Part shown: piece after piece, positions 10,204-15,921 of the stretch
How positions within the stretch are numbered: the first letter of the stretch is position 1
Layout of the letters: each line of letters begins with the position of its first letter
IMG/VR virus record: IMGVR_UViG_2778261418_000011
Span: 1-15,956 of that record
Length of the DNA: 15,956 bases
Origin: a virus
Lineage: Duplodnaviria > Heunggongvirae > Uroviricota > Caudoviricetes
Strand: one strand, 5' to 3'
Notes under the pieces: model-generated
The model's database searches: none
Told to the model about the DNA's origin: nothing
The model's input: the letters and a program-made list of their open reading frames with translations, nothing else
Made by a program: the position numbers and the translations under genes

Positions 10204-11961
10204 TTAAAGCGAGCGAATACCAACGCTGACCAGATGCTCAGACAGATCCGGCTCCGGTTCACCGCCATTGACCAGCATCCGGCTCATTGCTGTAAACATC
10301 GCAACAGGACCGTCGATTTTGGCTTCAGGCGTGGATTTGTTCGGGAAGATATTGTCGTTTTTGTCCGGTTTTACCGTAACGTTAGACATCATCCAGTTCA
10401 TGACCGGGTGATTGCTGTGGTGAAAACGCCCGGCATAGACCAGTGATTCCGTTTCCTTCATAGCCTCTGACAGATTGCGGACCGTCTGCGGAACTTCCAC
10501 CAGCGGTATCCCTTCTTCAGCCAGAGCCAGACTGAACTGCATTGCACTCCACGGGTCAAATCCCAGCTCCCTCAGGTTTTCACCACCAATCCATTCCAGT
10601 AAGTCACTTTTTATCTGAGCATGATCGATAACATCACCATCCGTCAGGATGAGCTTATCCATCTCCGCCCATTTCCGGTAAAGTTCTGCCTGCTGCCGCG
10701 AGCACCGCTCCAGCCGTCCTTCCGGGAGCCAGAATTTAAAATCAGCATGAACATGTCCGTTATCGGTTCGCCAGAGTTTTGCCGCCGCACAGATATCAAT
10801 CTTATGAGCAAGGTCGACGCCGACCCACATGGGATACGTTTTAAGCTCATGTCGTGGGGCAATATATTCGCATTTCTCCCACTTAATCATGTCCATCCAG
10901 GCAGACTCTGCTGTTACCCACACATTCATGTGTTTGGTAAAAAAATTCACCCGCGCAGAGACCTGTTCTTTCGCTTTTTTCGCCAGACGACGCAGATCAT
11001 CCCAGCGTTTACAGATGCCCAAGCCGGGATTCGCTTTCTGCCAGACCGTTTCATCAAACGGATCATCTCCCTCATCGAGCGTGTAAATAATCGCAAAGTA
11101 GGAATCATCTTTTACCGCGCCCTCCACGTCGCTGTTATAGCCTCGCAATACCTTGATGGCGTAATCGCGTTGCTCGTAACAAATCCCTTCCTTGTTAAAG
11201 CCCGCCGTGGTGATACCAAATAACAGGGACTGCAGACGGGCACCGGTTGCCGTTTCCAGAACGTCCCACACGTCGCGGGTTTTATGTGCATGCAGCTCAT
11301 CAATAATGGCGCAGTGGATGTTCAGACCGTCCAGGTTGTTTGCATCCGAGGAAAGCGGTTCAAATTTTGATGCGCTCTGCTCCTGGTAAATCGCCAGCTT
11401 GTTGAAATCAAACAATCGCCCGAGTGTCGACCGGGCTTTTCTGACCATATTTTTGGCGTCTTCAAACACAATTCTGGCCTGGTCACGCGTGGTTGCGGCT
11501 GAATACACCTCAGCACCGCCTTCACCATCTGCCCCCGTCATATACAGGCCGATACCCGATGACAGGGTTGATTTTGCGTTTTTACGGGCGACTTCGTTGT
11601 ACGCCGTACGGAACCGGCGCACCATCACCGGACGTCCGCTGCCATCGCTGCGCATGACAACTTCCCCGGTCTCTTCATTAACCAGCGGAATGACAAAACC
11701 AAAAATATTAATGAGGATAAATACATGCCAGTCCATCAGTTCAATGGGCTGGCCTGCCAGCGCCCCTTTTACATGGGGCACAAATTTGTAGAAATTCAGG
11801 ATGTGCTGCGCACGGGGTTCACTGAAATAAATCCCCCGCTCTTCGCCGTACTTCAGATCATCAAGAAAACGCTGGCAGGCCAGACGGACAAATTCGCCAG
11901 CGACAATTTCTCCTGCAACAACACGTTCGGCGTAGCGGATCCCGTCAGCCACTTTTGCCAT
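10204..11961 (-). CDS. Terminase large subunit
   Basis: 585-aa ORF in the canonical position between small terminase and portal, with an ATGA overlap to the small-subunit stop. Length and composition fit an ATPase-plus-nuclease large terminase. Confidence 0.9.
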
Positions 11962-12443
11962 CAGTCTCTCGCTTTTAAAAGTTCCGCCAGCGGATCAACA
12001 TCATCCGGTCCGGCGGTATTTACTTTCGCCCGGCTTGCCGGTGACATACCAAACTCTGCAAGCATCGCCCGGATCCGCTTCCAGGCATCCGCTTTCATCG
12101 CAGCAGCCGGGTGTGCCTTAATCAGCACATCACCGTTCTGCGTTTCCGTGCGGTAGGTATAACCCTCAACATCGAGTATTTCGCAGTGATGCCGGTATTC
12201 GGTGTAGGCTTCCACCAGCAACTCGAGTGCACGCGCATCAAGCTGAGAAATGATCCCTTCCGCATTCAGTTCTTCCGCCATTCGCCTGAACCAGTACTTC
12301 CCCTGCGCCCCTAAATGTTGCGGAATTTTAGGGAGACCTTTTTCGTCCTTTTTAGCGGTTTTTTTGGGGTCTTTAACGGGGCGCTTTGATGGGTTGCCTC
12401 GTATCAAATGCAGGCGTGGCGGGGTTTTCGGGGGTCCTGACAT
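11961..12443 (-). CDS. Terminase small subunit
   Basis: 160-aa ORF with a basic N-terminus (..KTPPRLHLIRGNPSKRPVKDPKKTAKKDEKG..) immediately upstream of and overlapping the large terminase. Resembles the P27-type small terminase as I recall it. Confidence 0.75.
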   Translation of the reverse strand: MSGPPKTPPRLHLIRGNPSKRPVKDPKKTAKKDEKGLPKIPQHLGAQGKYWFRRMAEELNAEGIISQLDARALELLVEAYTEYRHHCEILDVEGYTYRTETQNGDVLIKAHPAAAMKADAWKRIRAMLAEFGMSPASRAKVNTAGPDDVDPLAELLKARD

Positions 12444-12590
12444 AATCGGTTTTACCTATCAATCGTTTAATCGCATTCCCAAAAAAAAGTTTTCGAACCT
12501 GCGGCGATGCGAGGAAAGGTCAGGCGGCGGTACTGAGCAGCCAGGGCTGCAGGGATTTTACCCGCCCCTCCCCACAAGTGAGAATAATTA

Positions 12591-12941
12591 TCACCTGATT
12601 CGTTCGCGCGCTGTTTTTGCTTTGTGGCAGGGCCAGCACAGACTCTGCAGGTTGCTGTCTGCATCTGTTCCGCCATGTGCTTTCGGGATGATGTGGTCGA
12701 CAGTTTTCGCCTCGCGCACCACACCGACACGCAGACACAACTGACACAGACCTTTATCGCGCTTCAGAATACGGGCTCGAATCACCGTCCATTTTGAGCC
12801 ATAGCCACGCTGGTGGCGGCTCAGTCCGCGCTGGTGCTGCACCCAGCCTTCACCCCGATGTTTATCGCAGTAGCCAGAGCTGTCTGTTGTTGTGCCTGCG
12901 CAACCTCGCTTACGGCATGCGCGGGGGATTCGTGATGGCAT
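12591..12941 (-). CDS. HNH endonuclease (phage packaging-associated)
   Basis: C-terminal motif ...VDHIIPKAHGGTDADSNLQSLCWPCHKAKT plus an N-terminal Cys cluster. The likely start is the ATG at 12941 (MPSRIP...), with AGGAG at 6-nt spacing. Sits upstream of the terminase genes as in HK97-like phages. Confidence 0.85.
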   Translation of the reverse strand: MPSRIPRACRKRGCAGTTTDSSGYCDKHRGEGWVQHQRGLSRHQRGYGSKWTVIRARILKRDKGLCQLCLRVGVVREAKTVDHIIPKAHGGTDADSNLQSLCWPCHKAKTARERIR

Positions 12942-13023
12942 TGGAATCTCCTTAATACCGGCATTATCGCAGCCCCTCACTGAAGGGCTGCTGTAATGCC
13001 TGTTACTCAGTAACAACTGCGCC

Positions 13024-13299
13024 TTACGGTAATTTCATGAAGGCAAATACCGGACAGCCCGGATGACGAGCATCTTCTGTTGCTTCCAGCATTGATTCAC
13101 CAAACCACTCCGTCGTGGCACGACCATCAGCAGCTTTGTAGTGGAGCAAGTACTGGTTTTCGCCATCCGCATACTGAGCGCGAGCTTTAACCTCACCCCA
13201 TTCATCACTGATGCGTACTTCCACCAGTTGTGACAGTTCAAACTTAAACGGAATAGACGCGACACCAACTAAAATCGGTTTATTTTCTGTTTTTTCCAT
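13024..13299 (-). CDS. Hypothetical protein (~92 aa), function unknown
   Basis: Track ORF 13024..13350. The only SD (AGGAG) precedes the ATG ATG pair at 13302/13299, so the true product is probably MEKTENKPILVGVASIPFKFELSQLVEVRISDEWGEVKARAQYADGENQYLLHYKAADGRATTEWFGESMLEATEDARHPGCPVFAFMKLP. No family recognised. Confidence 0.5.
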   Translation of the reverse strand: MEKTENKPILVGVASIPFKFELSQLVEVRISDEWGEVKARAQYADGENQYLLHYKAADGRATTEWFGESMLEATEDARHPGCPVFAFMKLP

Positions 13300-13473
13300 C
13301 ATCGTCTCCTGATATCGAAGCCCGTCGCCGCACCGGGCGCTGATCAACATTTGAGTATTCGCGGCGAAAGAAAGAATTTATTTTATTGAATGACCGCAAA
13401 CACAGAATTTCATGCTTTCCGGGCGCTGACGCATCCTTCATTTTTCAGCAAAATATTCTGCTCTTACGGGCGA

Positions 13474-13656
13474 TCAGTTCTGCAGACACTGCCGAACACC
13501 GTCAACAATTTCGCAGACCTGAGAAGCCGTATCGAAAAGCTGGCGCGCCTTATCCAGGCTGACGCATCCCACCAATAAAAAAGGCACCAGTATCGCTACC
13601 AGTGCCCATTTCGCCGCCGTTCGCGGCATTCTGTGTGTCCAGTGTTTTCGCGCCAT
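13474..13656 (-). CDS. Small putative lipoprotein (60 aa; lipobox LVGC, ~30-aa mature peptide with 3 Cys)
   Basis: MARKHWTHRMPRTAAKWALVAILVPFLLVGCVSLDKARQLFDTASQVCEIVDGVRQCLQN has a basic n-region, a hydrophobic h-region and an L-V-G-C lipobox. Its start lies 1 nt after the stop of the upstream 37-aa ORF. Confidence 0.45.
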   Translation of the reverse strand: MARKHWTHRMPRTAAKWALVAILVPFLLVGCVSLDKARQLFDTASQVCEIVDGVRQCLQN

Positions 13657-13903: not shown

Positions 13904-14287
13904 TTATCGCTTCAGCTGAAAGTGAGGTCCGTCTTTCAGCGTTTTCCAGTCCCCGCCCCATTCGATAGCGATCCCCAGCTCTGCGGCAGCCTGCTTAAAT
14001 GCCTGTGCGATTTTCTCGTACAGAGGCCACTCCCATGACACCTGGCTGCCGATGTAGGCCACAACATCCACCGCATCACCGGTCAGGTGGCGGCTGTTCA
14101 TGGTCTGGCTTTTCCCTTCCGCAACCAGCTGTTTCTGGCGATACTTACTGCGCAGGCCTTCCGTAATACCGAAATCAACCTCCGTCAGCTCCAGCGCACG
14201 GCGAACTACAGCAACCAGCTGTGGTTTGACACCCTCCAGATTTTTTTCACTGCGACGGCTGAATCTGAATTTACCCGGCATATTCAC
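13904..14287 (-). CDS. Endolysin, peptidase M15 family (L-alanyl-D-glutamate peptidase type), no signal-anchor
   Basis: 127-aa ORF with the metal-ligand pattern ...SRHLTGDAVDV... and ...DGPHFQL, typical of M15 zinc peptidase endolysins as I recall. Hydrophilic N-terminus. ATGA overlap with the upstream holin-like gene. Confidence 0.8.
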   Translation of the reverse strand: MNMPGKFRFSRRSEKNLEGVKPQLVAVVRRALELTEVDFGITEGLRSKYRQKQLVAEGKSQTMNSRHLTGDAVDVVAYIGSQVSWEWPLYEKIAQAFKQAAAELGIAIEWGGDWKTLKDGPHFQLKR

Positions 14288-14559
14288 CTCAACAATGGAA
14301 AGATTTTTGTGACGTTCCCGCGTGCGCGTATCACCAGCACGCAGAACAGCAGGTTAAAAAACACTTCCAGCCAGCCCGTTGCTAACGGGCGACCACACAG
14401 ATAGCTGAGGGGCGCAAAGGCATACAGCAGCATCAGCAGCCAGGCCAGCCATGACATCAGCGGTTTATGTCTGGAATCACGGCGACGATAAAAAAAGAGC
14501 GTCAGCACGATAACCGTGCATAACGCCACATTCAGCAATCCGGGAAGGTTACTTAACAT
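14284..14559 (-). CDS. Holin-like membrane protein B (91 aa, about three transmembrane helices); possible holin or antiholin
   Basis: Track ORF 14284..14613. The likely start is the ATG at 14559 (MLSNLPGLLNVALCTVIVLTLFFY...), with GGAGGAGG at 5-nt spacing. It lies directly upstream of the endolysin. Confidence 0.55.
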   Translation of the reverse strand: MLSNLPGLLNVALCTVIVLTLFFYRRRDSRHKPLMSWLAWLLMLLYAFAPLSYLCGRPLATGWLEVFFNLLFCVLVIRARGNVTKIFPLLR

Positions 14560-14941
14560 TGCCGCCTCCTCCACCCCGCAGGCGGGAAAACAGGACGGAC
14601 ACCAGCGATGCAATATCCTGTTGGTGGATAAACGACAGAATCTTTACCGACACCACCGATACCAGCACCGCACACAGTGCATCCGCCGATGTACCGTCAT
14701 AACCTGTTTTTGCTGCAATCCAGGCTGACAGCACGCGCGCTCCCAGCACGCCGACAATGAACGACACCAGAAAATGTGCCGCCACCCGCCAGGCTGAAAG
14801 CGCCTGCGGCATCGTTGCCACAAACAACGCTCCGGCGAACGCCCCAAACACAATCCCGAAATCCGTCCCGGTAAACAGTCCGAATACCGTCGCCCCGCCG
14901 AGCGCAGCGGCTGTACCAGAACCGGATAAGGGTTCAGACAT
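14549..14941 (-). CDS. Holin-like membrane protein A (130 aa, several Gly/Ala-rich transmembrane helices)
   Basis: First gene of the lysis cassette, with GGAG 8 nt upstream of the ATG. Its Gly-rich C-terminus (RLRGGGGGNVK) is encoded by the SD of the next gene. Confidence 0.6.
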   Translation of the reverse strand: MSEPLSGSGTAAALGGATVFGLFTGTDFGIVFGAFAGALFVATMPQALSAWRVAAHFLVSFIVGVLGARVLSAWIAAKTGYDGTSADALCAVLVSVVSVKILSFIHQQDIASLVSVLFSRLRGGGGGNVK

Positions 14942-15688: not shown

Positions 15689-15763
<75 letters not shown>

Positions 15764-15766
15764 ATA

Positions 15767-15842
<76 letters not shown>

Positions 15843-15844
15843 AC

Positions 15845-15921
15845 TGGACCGCCACCGGGGACTCGAACCTCGCACACTTAACTTAAAGGGTTGACGCTCT
15901 TTCCTGATGAGCTAGTGGCGA
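15845..15921 (-). pseudogene. Degenerate tRNA-like gene (possible decayed tRNA-Arg-like member of the array)
   Basis: A 77-nt cloverleaf can be drawn (acceptor stem with U1-G72, D-arm GCUC/GAGC, T-loop UUCGAGU, encoded CCA). However the anticodon loop is CCUUUAA (C where U33 is normally invariant), and there are A-C mismatches in the anticodon and T stems. Confidence 0.4.

Follow-up and report, generated by a model that had tools for sequence, protein, structure and literature searches.

A 41-nt hairpin lying immediately upstream of an HNH endonuclease gene, in the 15,956-nucleotide stretch of caudoviricete phage DNA analysed here (the window), is a discrete, conserved and strand-specific RNA unit whose upper stem covaries freely. 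Hundreds of Enterobacterales contigs, from both prophages and phages, carry the same hairpin with unrelated flanks. Comparison of these copies in pairs shows homology between phages beginning or ending at the edges of the hairpin, which marks it, as judged from sequence, as a point at which modules are swapped. The element is tentatively interpreted as an intercistronic mRNA processing and 3’-stability signal, with RNase III the most likely agent, that would double as a crossover point; the likelihood given to this interpretation is substantial but somewhat short of even.

An inverted-repeat search of the window recovered a large dyad with 23-nt arms (12957-12979 and 12981-13003) that are 83% complementary, and the coordinates that the original prediction had given for a 41-nt dyad, 12960-13000, were borne out. 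The fold proposed for it was not. In place of a stem of about 16 bp with a 9-nt loop, the minus-strand (mRNA-sense) RNA folds into two stems, a lower one of 7 bp and an upper one of 10 bp, which are separated by a 2x2 internal loop (CA/GA) and capped by a 3-nt apical loop; positions within the element are numbered from 13000 (position 1) to 12960 (position 41). Folding of the minus-strand RNA, which had been proposed as a check, gave a strong structure. An 87-nt RNA reached -37 kcal/mol as compared to -20.9 +/- 3.3 for shuffled sequences (z = -4.9), and a 51-nt core reached -30.8 kcal/mol (z = -7.0), a value that none of 200 shuffles matched. On the plus strand the fold is weaker (-31.9 kcal/mol), since a U-G pair is replaced there by A-C. 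A search of the window with covariance model R1 detected a single copy, scoring 64.3 bits (E = 2.5e-13) on the minus strand and 32.4 bits on the plus strand.

Table. Coordinates of the hairpin, its parts and the neighbouring features in the window
Feature	Position	Strand	Remarks
Conserved hairpin element, 41 nt	12960..13000	minus	5’-GGCAUUA CA GCAGCCCUUC AGU GAGGGGCUGC GA UAAUGCC-3’
Lower stem 5’ arm, GGCAUUA	12994..13000	minus	CAUUA nearly invariant in the family (position frequencies, pair tables)
Internal loop 5’ side, CA	12992..12993	minus	Kept in divergent Yersinia and Edwardsiella copies, located by BLAST with no pattern imposed
Upper stem 5’ arm, GCAGCCCUUC	12982..12991	minus	Covaries with 12969-12978
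Apical loop, AGU	12979..12981	minus	Sequence variable; mostly 3 nt, otherwise 2-8 nt
Upper stem 3’ arm, GAGGGGCUGC	12969..12978	minus	Contains A24 and G25 of the conserved U-A/U-G doublet adjoining the loop
Internal loop 3’ side, GA	12967..12968	minus	Conserved 2x2 loop
Lower stem 3’ arm, UAAUGCC	12960..12966	minus	Last two bases variable, mostly pyrimidines pairing with G1 and G2
HNH endonuclease gene, 351 nt	12591..12941	minus	Pfam PF01844, 1.9e-16; phrog_144, 4.7e-43; same length as phiP27 L34
Terminase small subunit gene (terS)	11961..12443	minus	phrog_83, 5.7e-55
Site homologous to the annotated phiP27 cos, between HNH and terS	12520..12529 (about)	minus	Homology only; sequence differs from phiP27
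Upstream gene, phrog_1935	13024..13302	minus	phrog_1935, 1.6e-52, function unknown; homologue of phiP27 L33 and cdtI orf60
Perfect palindrome TGTTACTCAGTAACA	13001..13015		Outside the element; ancestral 3’ end (V-V-T-E-stop) of the upstream gene

Covariation was assessed in 84 distinct copies picked solely by the pattern CATTACA-N23-GATAATG. In this set 94.5% of pair cells were paired, as compared to 35-49% when the partners were slid, and the covariation score of 0.293 was not equalled in any of 500 shuffles (0.149 +/- 0.008). Compensatory pairs were found at 11:31 (C-G in 49 copies, A-U in 24, G-U in 7), at 14:28 (C-G 40, G-C 28, G-U 10) and at 16:26 (A-U 46, C-G 28). Next to the apical loop, U18-A24 was present in 81 of the 84 copies and a U17-G25 wobble in 68. 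The covariation falls mostly in a few haplotypes, and the independent events are modest in number. The upper stem measures 10 bp in every variant, though the loops span 2-8 nt. The conserved base of the element reads (G)GCAUUA-CA...GA-UAAUG, with both arms equally conserved, and positions 40 and 41 are 78-82% pyrimidine across family copies.

The strand on which the structure is maintained was indicated by the wobble pairs. Among 114 copies, G-U was found at U17-G25 in 104 and at G10-U32 in 68, and outer-pair G-U numbered 74 as compared to at most 16 A-C; at the outer two pairs of the lower stem the G-U counts were 46 and 28, versus A-C counts of at most 6. Because G-U pairs far outnumber A-C pairs, the structure is placed on the sense RNA. 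Family copies scored 48-68 bits with the covariance model on the sense strand and 24-32 bits on the antisense strand. When CA...GA and pairing alone served as the definition, 345 sense matches were obtained versus 7 antisense matches.

At least 119 viral contigs carried the hairpin in each of three scans. It was also present in 26 phage records, in 71 species-representative genomes, essentially all of them Enterobacterales, and in 382 of 5426 E. coli genomes, with a median of one copy per carrier and a maximum of 7. Carriers include phiP27, cdtI, Fels-1 and phi80, as well as phages of Klebsiella, Yersinia and Edwardsiella. Conservation in relatives, the lack of which would have counted against the original prediction, was found. 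RNase III sites have been mapped in E. coli K-12 (PMC6212723). In that strain the comparison covered the prophages DLP12 and Qin, and the hairpin is absent from both.

All copies whose context was examined belong to the late region of a prophage or phage. In each annotated phage checked, the hairpin is situated between the lysis genes and terminase or cos, and in the whole genomes of phiP27, phi80 and KPP5665-2 the matches were confined to the late region between lysis and packaging genes. Where the coding strand was clear, the hairpin was co-oriented with the upstream flank in 121 of 130 cases and with the downstream flank in 120 of 130. The element commonly starts 0-2 nt past a stop codon: the gap was between -2 and +2 nt in 149 of 253 cases and amounted to 9 nt in 65 of them. 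A role as a coding or readthrough extension was rejected, since the upstream stop codons are in differing frames relative to the element. Often a small ORF and a hairpin alternate in tandem arrays with a spacing of ~260-310 nt. The genes in these arrays are small and have accessory or anti-defence roles; Acb2/Tad1-like sponges, DUF2560 and DUF826 are among them.

The flanks themselves are highly diverse, falling into at least 32 upstream and at least 75 downstream ORF clusters. HNH or terS is the next gene in ~28% of copies, and in Fels-1 and phi80 the DNA beyond the copies is unrelated or convergent. An intrinsic terminator directly precedes at least 6 of 66 genomic copies, and in the Edwardsiella phage EPP-1 a separate canonical terminator is located 3’ of the hairpin. 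When pairs of copies with the same upstream but different downstream flanks were compared, 545 of 797 lost similarity at positions 40-42; for pairs with different upstream but the same downstream flanks, 77 of 183 regained it at positions -2 to +1. The apical variant travels with the upstream flank (48 pairs) or with the downstream flank (33 pairs).

Searches for an earlier description were made in Rfam and in the literature. Rfam 15 at the gathering threshold returned only three tRNAs from the whole window and nothing at the hairpin, and a permissive scan of 12900-13080 gave weak matches that scored far under that threshold, mostly spurious miRNA precursors along with a few other RNA families, all with E >= 0.14. 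Literature searches by the literal strings GGCATTACAGCAG and CATTATCACAGGCA retrieved just unrelated eukaryotic papers, and those on conserved stem-loops in lambdoid mosaics and on DUF2560 retrieved nothing about the hairpin. This widespread 41-nt hairpin of the temperate phages of enteric bacteria has apparently gone undescribed so far.

In the favoured interpretation, the hairpin would be transcribed within the Q-dependent late transcript, where it would punctuate the cistrons from the lysis cassette to the packaging genes and act post-transcriptionally as a processing and 3’-stability signal. Host RNase III would recognise the UA/UG distal box adjoining the apical loop and would nick a single strand where the internal loop lies, ~11 bp further down. 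On the assumption of the T7 register, the cut is predicted between 12966 and 12965, ~1 nt 3’ of GA, as extrapolated from T7 sites and from PMC1540722. The upstream cistron would then keep the hairpin at its 3’ end as a barrier to exonucleases, and the cut would release the downstream mRNA, in the window that of HNH-terS-terL. As a by-product, the ~40 nt of near-identity among otherwise unrelated phages would favour crossovers at the element by the short-homology recombinases that the phages encode, and for this reason the hairpin would mark mosaic junctions.

Several features of known RNase III substrates can be compared with the element. In a canonical distal box a UA pair comes first and a UG pair next (PMC1540722), and this is the doublet formed by U18-A24 and U17-G25 in most copies. 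Internal loops limit RNase III cleavage to one bond, leaving a protective 3’ hairpin, and the minimum loop-to-cleavage distance is 11 bp (PMC1540722); the CA/GA loop is found beneath an upper stem of exactly 10 bp in all variants. With 7 + 10 bp and the stacked 2x2 loop, the helix amounts to ~19 positions, which is at the lower limit for RNase III (PMC1540722), a signal of this type calling for roughly two helical turns of largely double-stranded RNA. The proximal box, however, departs from the rule. Its canonical form is G-C, A-U/U-A, A-U, A-U/U-A, and C-G or G-C at position 2 strongly inhibited RNase III binding in a minimal substrate (PMC1540722), whereas the window copy reads A-U, C-G, G-C, A.G in the T7 register. 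An A-U pair at proximal-box position 2 was found solely in the GAAG/CUUC variants. RNase III rules do not account for the strict conservation of the A/U-rich lower stem and of the CA/GA loop, which could point to a different reader, such as RNase E or a phage protein, or to a DNA-level function.

The closest architectural likeness is to the RNase III sites of phage T7. T7 R0.3, R0.5, R1, R1.1 and R1.3 are, like the present hairpins, repeated, sequence-related intercistronic hairpins in the sense orientation of one polycistronic phage transcript. In R0.3, R0.5, R1 and R1.1 an upper stem of 9-10 bp stands above an unpaired stretch, as does the 10-bp stem here; R1.3 differs in that its 13-bp stem is uninterrupted. 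At the tip of R1.1, the 5 bp CAUUC/GAGUG are identical to the family consensus (phi80 type), wobble included, and the window copy, CCUUC/GAGGG, has 8 of 10 nt in common with them, including the U-A/U-G doublet. The cleavage coordinates of R0.3, R0.5 and R1.1 fall 3 nt 3’ of the stem. The T7 hairpin remains on the upstream mRNA as a 3’ protector, and the same is proposed here. The T7 sites differ from the hairpin in the sequence of the lower stem and internal loop, and as compared to T7 the hairpin’s proximal box is non-canonical, with C-G at position 2 in the window copy. The biology also differs: T7-like phages are lytic, whereas the hairpin is carried by temperate prophages of the lambdoid or HK97-like kind, whose late operon is Q-dependent and in which cleavage is a prediction. 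When the T7 genome was searched with covariance model R1 with filters off, the best match reached 15 bits (E = 0.29) and was not at an RNase III site. The T7 sites were accordingly rejected as members of the family, the likeness being one of architecture plus a 5-bp match.

If the processing interpretation is correct, the late transcripts of temperate phages would join T7 early mRNA among the systems in which hairpins cut polycistronic RNA into stable messages. The sharp mosaic junctions would be explained by ~40 nt of conserved functional RNA sequence acting as a crossover point. The 41-nt motif would provide a search handle for the accessory-gene slot of lambdoid and HK97-like enteric prophages, a slot that gathers anti-defence genes (Acb2/Tad1 homologues) and other small unknown genes, and the hairpin could serve as a compact insulator or processing part in synthetic operons.

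An unlikely alternative is that the element is chiefly a recombination linker or cassette boundary for the swapping of accessory genes, like a PeSL or, in a more radical version, an attC-type site of single-strand recombination, with any RNA role secondary. This would account for the homology breakpoints at the edges of the element, the cassette replacement seen in tandem ORF-hairpin arrays and the large number of ORF clusters in the flanks, and PeSLs are a documented precedent (PMC4122927, PMC2839356). The PeSLs of T4-like phages are also short stem-loop motifs repeated between small variable ORFs, where they coincide with indels and replacements (PMC2839356, PMC4122927). A PeSL, however, combines a terminator-like stem-loop with a recognisable early promoter (PMC2839356, PMC4122927). 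In the hairpin just GATAAT was recognised and no credible promoter; the element is also unrelated in sequence, occurs in a different phage group and is associated with late instead of early transcription.

Integron attC sites offer a second parallel to such a linker. They too form imperfect hairpins in which the base is conserved, the spacer unpaired and the tip variable. In both cases one such hairpin stands behind every ORF of a tandem array, and exchange junctions coincide with the element. In contrast to attC, the hairpin lacks R’’/R’ cores and extrahelical bases, and its crossovers appear on both sides of the element. No attC cores (RYYYAAC ... GTTRRRY) were found in the consensus GGCATTACAG...GATAATG. 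In the annotated phages the arrays have no IntI-type integrase beside them, nor was a dedicated recombinase gene seen in their vicinity. Sequence identity alone would suffice for a linker, which needs neither self-complementarity nor a fixed 10-bp stem, G-U asymmetry or co-orientation. The passage of the apical variant with either flank also fits crossovers anywhere in or near the element better than crossovers at a single fixed site.

A 3’ element of a passive or translation-coupled kind, acting without RNase III, is rather unlikely; it might be an exonuclease barrier, a hairpin at the stop codon that tunes termination and the expression of the gene upstream, or a site for another RNase such as RNase E. 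The position so close to the stop codon in 149 of 253 cases and the stable, GC-rich upper stem are consistent with this, and where a separate terminator follows, as in EPP-1, the hairpin could protect a processed 3’ end. REP/BIME elements offer a model. Their hairpins are likewise imperfect and GC-rich, with intercistronic or 3’ untranslated locations that are often near stop codons. REPs stabilise the upstream mRNA and, within ~15 nt of the stop codon, affect translation. They differ from the hairpin in consensus, in numbering hundreds of chromosomal copies per genome as compared to 0-7 per E. coli genome, and in their association with RAYT transposases. The low prevalence and single median copy among E. 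coli genomes do not resemble a REP/BIME distribution. RNase E prefers RN↓WUU (the arrow marks the cut), to which GGC↓AUUA in the 5’ arm conforms, but this candidate site is base-paired. In addition, a mere barrier needs no CAUUA/UAAUG base, CA/GA loop or fixed 10-bp stem, and the copies that are 9 nt away from the stop codon or that follow a terminator instead of an ORF also weigh against this explanation.

A broader proposal joins the two roles. The hairpin would be the boundary signal of an unrecognised, integron- or PeSL-like cassette system within the late operon of temperate Enterobacterales phages, in which every small gene of an array closes with this structure. It would govern the expression of each cassette through RNase III-type processing and would also be the site of cassette gain, loss and exchange. 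This was considered distinctly unlikely.

A DNA-level promoter or operator is considerably less probable. Under this explanation the 3’ arm, CTGYGATAATG, would be an extended -10 element (TGnGATAAT) and the dyad a regulator site, giving each cassette its own promoter. GATAAT is indeed invariant, many downstream start codons are found 20-30 nt past it, and the copies that directly follow an intrinsic terminator have the PeSL-like layout of terminator then promoter. However, no -35 element is present at a spacing of 16-18 bp, the nearest -35-like hexamer, ATTACA, being 23 bp away, and a consensus promoter scan was silent at the hairpin. The GAAG/CUUC and GGAG/CUUC variants have lost the TG, and the opposite arm has changed in compensation, which indicates that the pairing is conserved and not the TG. 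Both arms are conserved alike, and a dimer operator would not retain the CA/GA asymmetry or a self-complementary centre. The sigma-28 promoter, DnaA box and IHF site consensus sequences, compared with the element by eye, gave no convincing match. A mobile MITE-like insertion with a TAA target duplication was set aside, the copies being limited to a single genome region.

An intrinsic terminator closing the lysis or accessory unit would agree with a strong GC-rich hairpin right after a stop codon, but is highly improbable given that no variant has a U-tract, that the sequence varies from the first downstream base, that a terminator scan made no call at the hairpin, that EPP-1 has its own canonical terminator after it, and that the essential late genes HNH, terS and terL lie directly downstream in the same operon.

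Equally improbable is a specific connection to packaging or to HNH expression. Of the three roles that the original prediction had entertained, RNA processing is now the favoured one, and a tie to HNH translation or to packaging found no support. The dyads were proposed to bind the terminase small subunit or the HNH protein, or to control HNH translation, and the proximity is real: the HNH Shine-Dalgarno sequence (AAGGAG, 12948-12953; start codon 12939-12941) begins 7 nt past the hairpin, the phiP27 copy has the same spacing, and HNH or terS follows more than a quarter of copies. The Shine-Dalgarno sequence, however, is not sequestered in the predicted fold, and for most copies the downstream gene is unrelated or missing. 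Phage vB_EcoM-606R7, a close relative, has the same HNH/terS/terL module, arranged as Rz, 42 nt and then HNH, with no hairpin. The cos of phiP27 is located between HNH and terS, and the putative cos position in the window is likewise on the opposite side of HNH from the hairpin, which is not kept together with terminase. On these comparisons the hairpin is without a specific tie to HNH or to DNA packaging, and the window dyad is no evidence of a special control site.

The second dyad described in the original prediction, the palindrome at 13001-13015, is present, but neither its prominence nor its union with the hairpin as one unit withstood comparison. Dinucleotide shuffles contained 4.4 +/- 2.3 perfect inverted repeats with arms of >=7 bp and a spacer no longer than 3 nt, and the window itself has 6; the dyad is not conserved in the relatives. 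Its frequency at chance level, its lack of conservation and its origin as coding sequence led to its rejection as a second structural element. The counterpart of 13001-13015 in phiP27 and cdtI codes for the terminal ...V-V-T-E-stop of the upstream gene. In the window this stretch falls between genes for the sole reason that GAA->TAA at 13024-13026 shortens the phrog_1935 gene by 7 codons. The likely start of that gene is the ATG at 13300-13302, and the mechanical ORF extends to 13350.

The large inverted repeat of the original prediction is real, and minus-strand RNA folds it into a strong hairpin. Its lower stem is 7 bp long (GGCAUUA/UAAUGCC) and is followed by a symmetric 2x2 internal loop with CA facing GA, a 10-bp upper stem (GCAGCCCUUC/GAGGGGCUGC) that includes one U-G pair, and a 3-nt apical loop. 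The 51-nt core reached -30.8 kcal/mol, whereas dinucleotide shuffles gave -12.2 +/- 2.7 (z = -7.0), and the 87-nt intergenic RNA gave z = -4.9. The plus strand, on which the wobble pair turns into an A-C mismatch, consequently folds less well by 5 kcal/mol. Minus-strand gene order at the dyad is the order in which the late operon is read. Window positions 12560-13360 are 93.9% identical to Stx2e phage phiP27, whose genes L33 (unknown) and L34 correspond to the phrog_1935 gene and HNH.

Coordinates of the dyad, neighboring genes and tandem small-ORF and hairpin arrays in related Klebsiella-type contigs
Feature	Sequence	Position	Strand	Remark
Three tandem tRNA genes	window	15692-15921	-	65.6, 64.2, 31.9 bits; upstream of lysis genes
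Holin	window	14552-14941	-	
Holin	window	14287-14613	-	
Endolysin	window	13907-14287	-	
60-aa ORF, phrog_7528	window	13477-13656	-	
phrog_1935 gene	window	13024-13302	-	function unknown; between 60-aa ORF and dyad
Palindrome	window	13001-13015		
Dyad (hairpin positions 1 to 41)	window	13000-12960	-	
HNH endonuclease gene	window	12591-12941	-	after dyad
terS	window	11961-12443	-	
terL	window	10204-11961	-	
Array	L030	6388-7321		
Array	L095	5357-6581	-	
Array	L104	1432-3064	-	
Array	L157	5636-6861		

The dyad had been paired with an adjacent perfect palindrome. Both sequences are present, but only the dyad stands as an element and the two do not form a pair; the palindrome is ordinary. The window contains six perfect 7-bp dyads with short spacers, as compared to 4.4 +/- 2.3 in shuffles. 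In phiP27 and phage cdtI the same bases are the upstream gene's final codons (GTT GTT ACT GAG TAA), and in other relatives the left arm is degenerate or missing. Relative to phiP27 L33 and cdtI orf60, a GAA to TAA nonsense change at window 13024-13026 shortens the phrog_1935 gene by 7 codons, and the former 3' end of this gene is therefore now 'intergenic'.

The hairpin is kept as a discrete unit across many Enterobacterales phages. By BLAST, it is the only sequence that Salmonella phage Fels-1 has in common with the window (40-47 nt, 96-100% identity, unrelated flanks). A sensitive search placed it in 26 phage records, including cdtI, phi458, phi80 and Klebsiella, Yersinia and Edwardsiella phages. 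It is found in 382 of 5426 complete E. coli genomes (median 1 and maximum 7 places per positive genome) and in at least ~120 IMG/VR contigs in each of three pattern scans. With each prokaryotic species represented by one genome, a complete scan gave 71 stretches. Essentially all are from Enterobacterales (Enterobacteriaceae, Erwiniaceae, Pectobacteriaceae and Yersiniaceae), and contamination probably accounts for two odd records. Near-identical copies occur under non-enterobacterial host labels, in Actinobacillus phage vB_Apl-pPE4 (L295), Elizabethkingia phage EKP1 (H35), Chryseobacterium sp. 18061 (L344) and a Methanobacteriota MAG (L348). Either these host assignments are doubtful or the records contain contamination.

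The basal part of the hairpin keeps its sequence from copy to copy, (G)GCAUUA-CA ... GA-UAAUG, with the two outermost pairs joining G to a pyrimidine (G-C or G-U). The upper stem is 10 bp in all copies, and the loop is 2 to 8 nt. Covariation was assessed in 84 distinct copies picked solely by CATTACA-N23-GATAATG, a pattern that places no constraint on the upper 23 nt. Standard pairs fill 94.5% of pair cells, as compared to 35-49% after a shift of the 3' partners by 1-3 columns, and the covariation score is 0.293 versus 0.149 +/- 0.008 in shuffles, none of 500 scoring as high. In these copies, pair 11:31 is C-G in 49, A-U in 24 and G-U in 7; pair 14:28 is C-G in 40, G-C in 28 and G-U in 10; and pair 16:26 is A-U in 46 and C-G in 28. 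Independent covariation events are modest in number because the changes cluster in a few upper-stem haplotypes: GCAG/CUGY (tips GCAUUC or CCCUUC), GAAG/CUUC and GGAG/CUUC, with AAGC/GCUU and GAGC/GCUC rarer. The helix is clearly maintained.

The structure is that of the late-operon mRNA strand, as three results indicate. The first is an excess of G-U pairs at places where A-C would stand on the other strand: U17-G25 in 104 and G10-U32 in 68 of 114 copies, with outer pairs often G-U and A-C or C-A mismatches rare. Secondly, a covariance model of 61 copies gives the sense strand 48-68 bits and the antisense strand 24-32 bits. Finally, a search in which just CA and GA of the loop were fixed and pairing was required gave 345 sense versus 7 antisense matches.

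In all annotated phages examined, the hairpin follows the lysis genes and precedes terminase or cos. Model scans of the whole phiP27, phi80 and KPP5665-2 genomes (128 kb total) gave matches confined to this segment, with a Q-type antiterminator upstream in all three. Where the strand was clear, flanking genes were coded in the sense of the hairpin on the upstream side in 121 of 130 cases and on the downstream side in 120 of 130. The distance from the upstream stop codon to the hairpin start is -2 to +2 nt in 149 of 253 cases; in 65 more it is 9 nt. Upstream ORFs fall into at least 32 clusters, including DUF2560, DUF826, an Acb2/Tad1-like family, Rz-like spanins, Rha and phrog_1935. Downstream ORFs form at least 75, HNH (35 loci) and terS (41 loci) being a minority. 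In six genome contigs (L302, L303, L307, L312, L324 and L341) the hairpin instead lies 3-10 nt past a canonical intrinsic terminator, in the order terminator, hairpin, gene.

Many Klebsiella-type contigs carry 2-4 hairpins in one orientation, spaced about 260-310 nt, with a small gene before each and the next gene starting ~24 nt after. In the four tabulated arrays, one recurrent ORF family matches Pfam Acb2/Tad1, an anti-CBASS/anti-Thoeris sponge (PF24729, 1.6e-18), and other ORFs are DUF2560 and DUF826. Homologues of the phrog_1935 gene recur within arrays with a diverged hairpin, so gene and hairpin are a long-standing pair. A further but improbable reading is that the hairpins delimit a cassette system for accessory and anti-defence genes.

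Junctions were analyzed by pairwise comparison of 219 distinct contexts. In 797 pairs the upstream flank is common and the downstream flank is not, and similarity is lost at positions 40-42, right past UAAUG, in 545 of these. In 183 pairs the downstream flank alone is common, and similarity begins at positions -2 to +1 in 77. The apical variant travels with the upstream side in 48 pairs and with the downstream side in 33. Such a pattern is what homologous exchange in or beside a common ~40-nt sequence would give, and it argues against one fixed, attC-like crossover point. Lambdoid phages carry Red/RecT-type recombinases, active on homologies as short as ~40 nt. Overall, the element is very probably a conserved RNA hairpin of the sense strand, one that punctuates cistrons and marks the points of exchange. 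It looks undescribed so far, since Rfam 15 has no matching family and text searches of the literature, by sequence and by concept, found nothing on it. Like in kind are the intercistronic RNase III sites of T7 and the T4-type PeSL motifs, which mediate modular shuffling (PMC2839356, PMC4122927).

The nearest working model, by analogy, is most likely the RNase III processing signals between T7 early genes. The T7 sites were folded around cleavage coordinates that we presume to be correct. In R0.3, R0.5, R1 and R1.1 the upper stem has 9-10 bp, resembling the 10 bp of the hairpin, and unpaired nucleotides come next, whereas R1.3 is an uninterrupted stem of 13 bp. The cut, which we take to fall between CCUUUAU and GAU, lies 3 nt past the stem on its 3' side in R0.3, R0.5 and R1.1. 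R1.1 is identical to the family consensus in its five apical pairs (CAUUC/GAGUG), U-G wobble included. [quoted passage not shown] The distal-box pairs are the best-kept pairs of the variable region (U18-A24 in 81 and U17-G25 in 68 of 84 copies), and the fixed 10-bp stem sets the CA/GA loop at the cleavage distance expected for RNase III. By analogy with T7, the upstream cistron would retain the hairpin as an exonuclease block and the downstream message, here HNH-terS-terL, would be set free. This specific form, RNase III-type processing plus stabilization, is tentative because several points count against it: the proximal box of the window's copy is non-canonical, with a C-G at position 2 that is inhibitory to binding in a minimal substrate (PMC1540722); the covariance model does not detect the T7 sites; and RNase III rules give no explanation for the strict conservation of the A/U-rich base.

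A promoter in the 3' arm is a weak alternative and probably not correct. TGnGATAAT is present, but a -35 element is lacking, CUUC variants have other bases in place of the TG with compensation on the opposite arm, and conservation is equal on both arms. The suggested translational operator of HNH does not agree with the predicted fold, which leaves the HNH Shine-Dalgarno free. The proposed links to packaging and to HNH fail on phage vB_EcoM-606R7 (matching 80% of the window at 92% identity), which has the same HNH/terS/terL module in the order Rz, 42 nt, HNH and lacks the hairpin. In this close structural-module relative (L370 2184-2225) the phrog_1935 gene and hairpin are both missing, and homology to the window therefore stops exactly at the HNH start codon. 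An intrinsic terminator is rejected: no variant has a U-tract after the hairpin, a terminator scan made no call, EPP-1 has the hairpin and then a separate canonical terminator, and at least six genomes have a terminator directly before the hairpin.

The experimentally annotated cos of phiP27 lies between HNH and terS, and the dyad is on the other side of HNH. When window 12440-12600 was compared to phiP27, ~75 nt directly past the HNH stop were near-identical, and similarity collapsed from the annotated cos position onward (window ~12520-12529; CGCCGCCTGA versus CGCCCGCCCC). Because the terS upstream region is unrelated to phiP27, cos itself is the site of a further sharp mosaic junction. Within the 60-aa ORF there is a hairpin that resembles a terminator, T-run included (GGGCACTGGTAGCGATACTGGTGCCT TTTTTATT; window 13582-13607, minus strand), which casts doubt on one of the two, the ORF call or the terminator. 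tRNA genes are also present in the corresponding region of phiP27.
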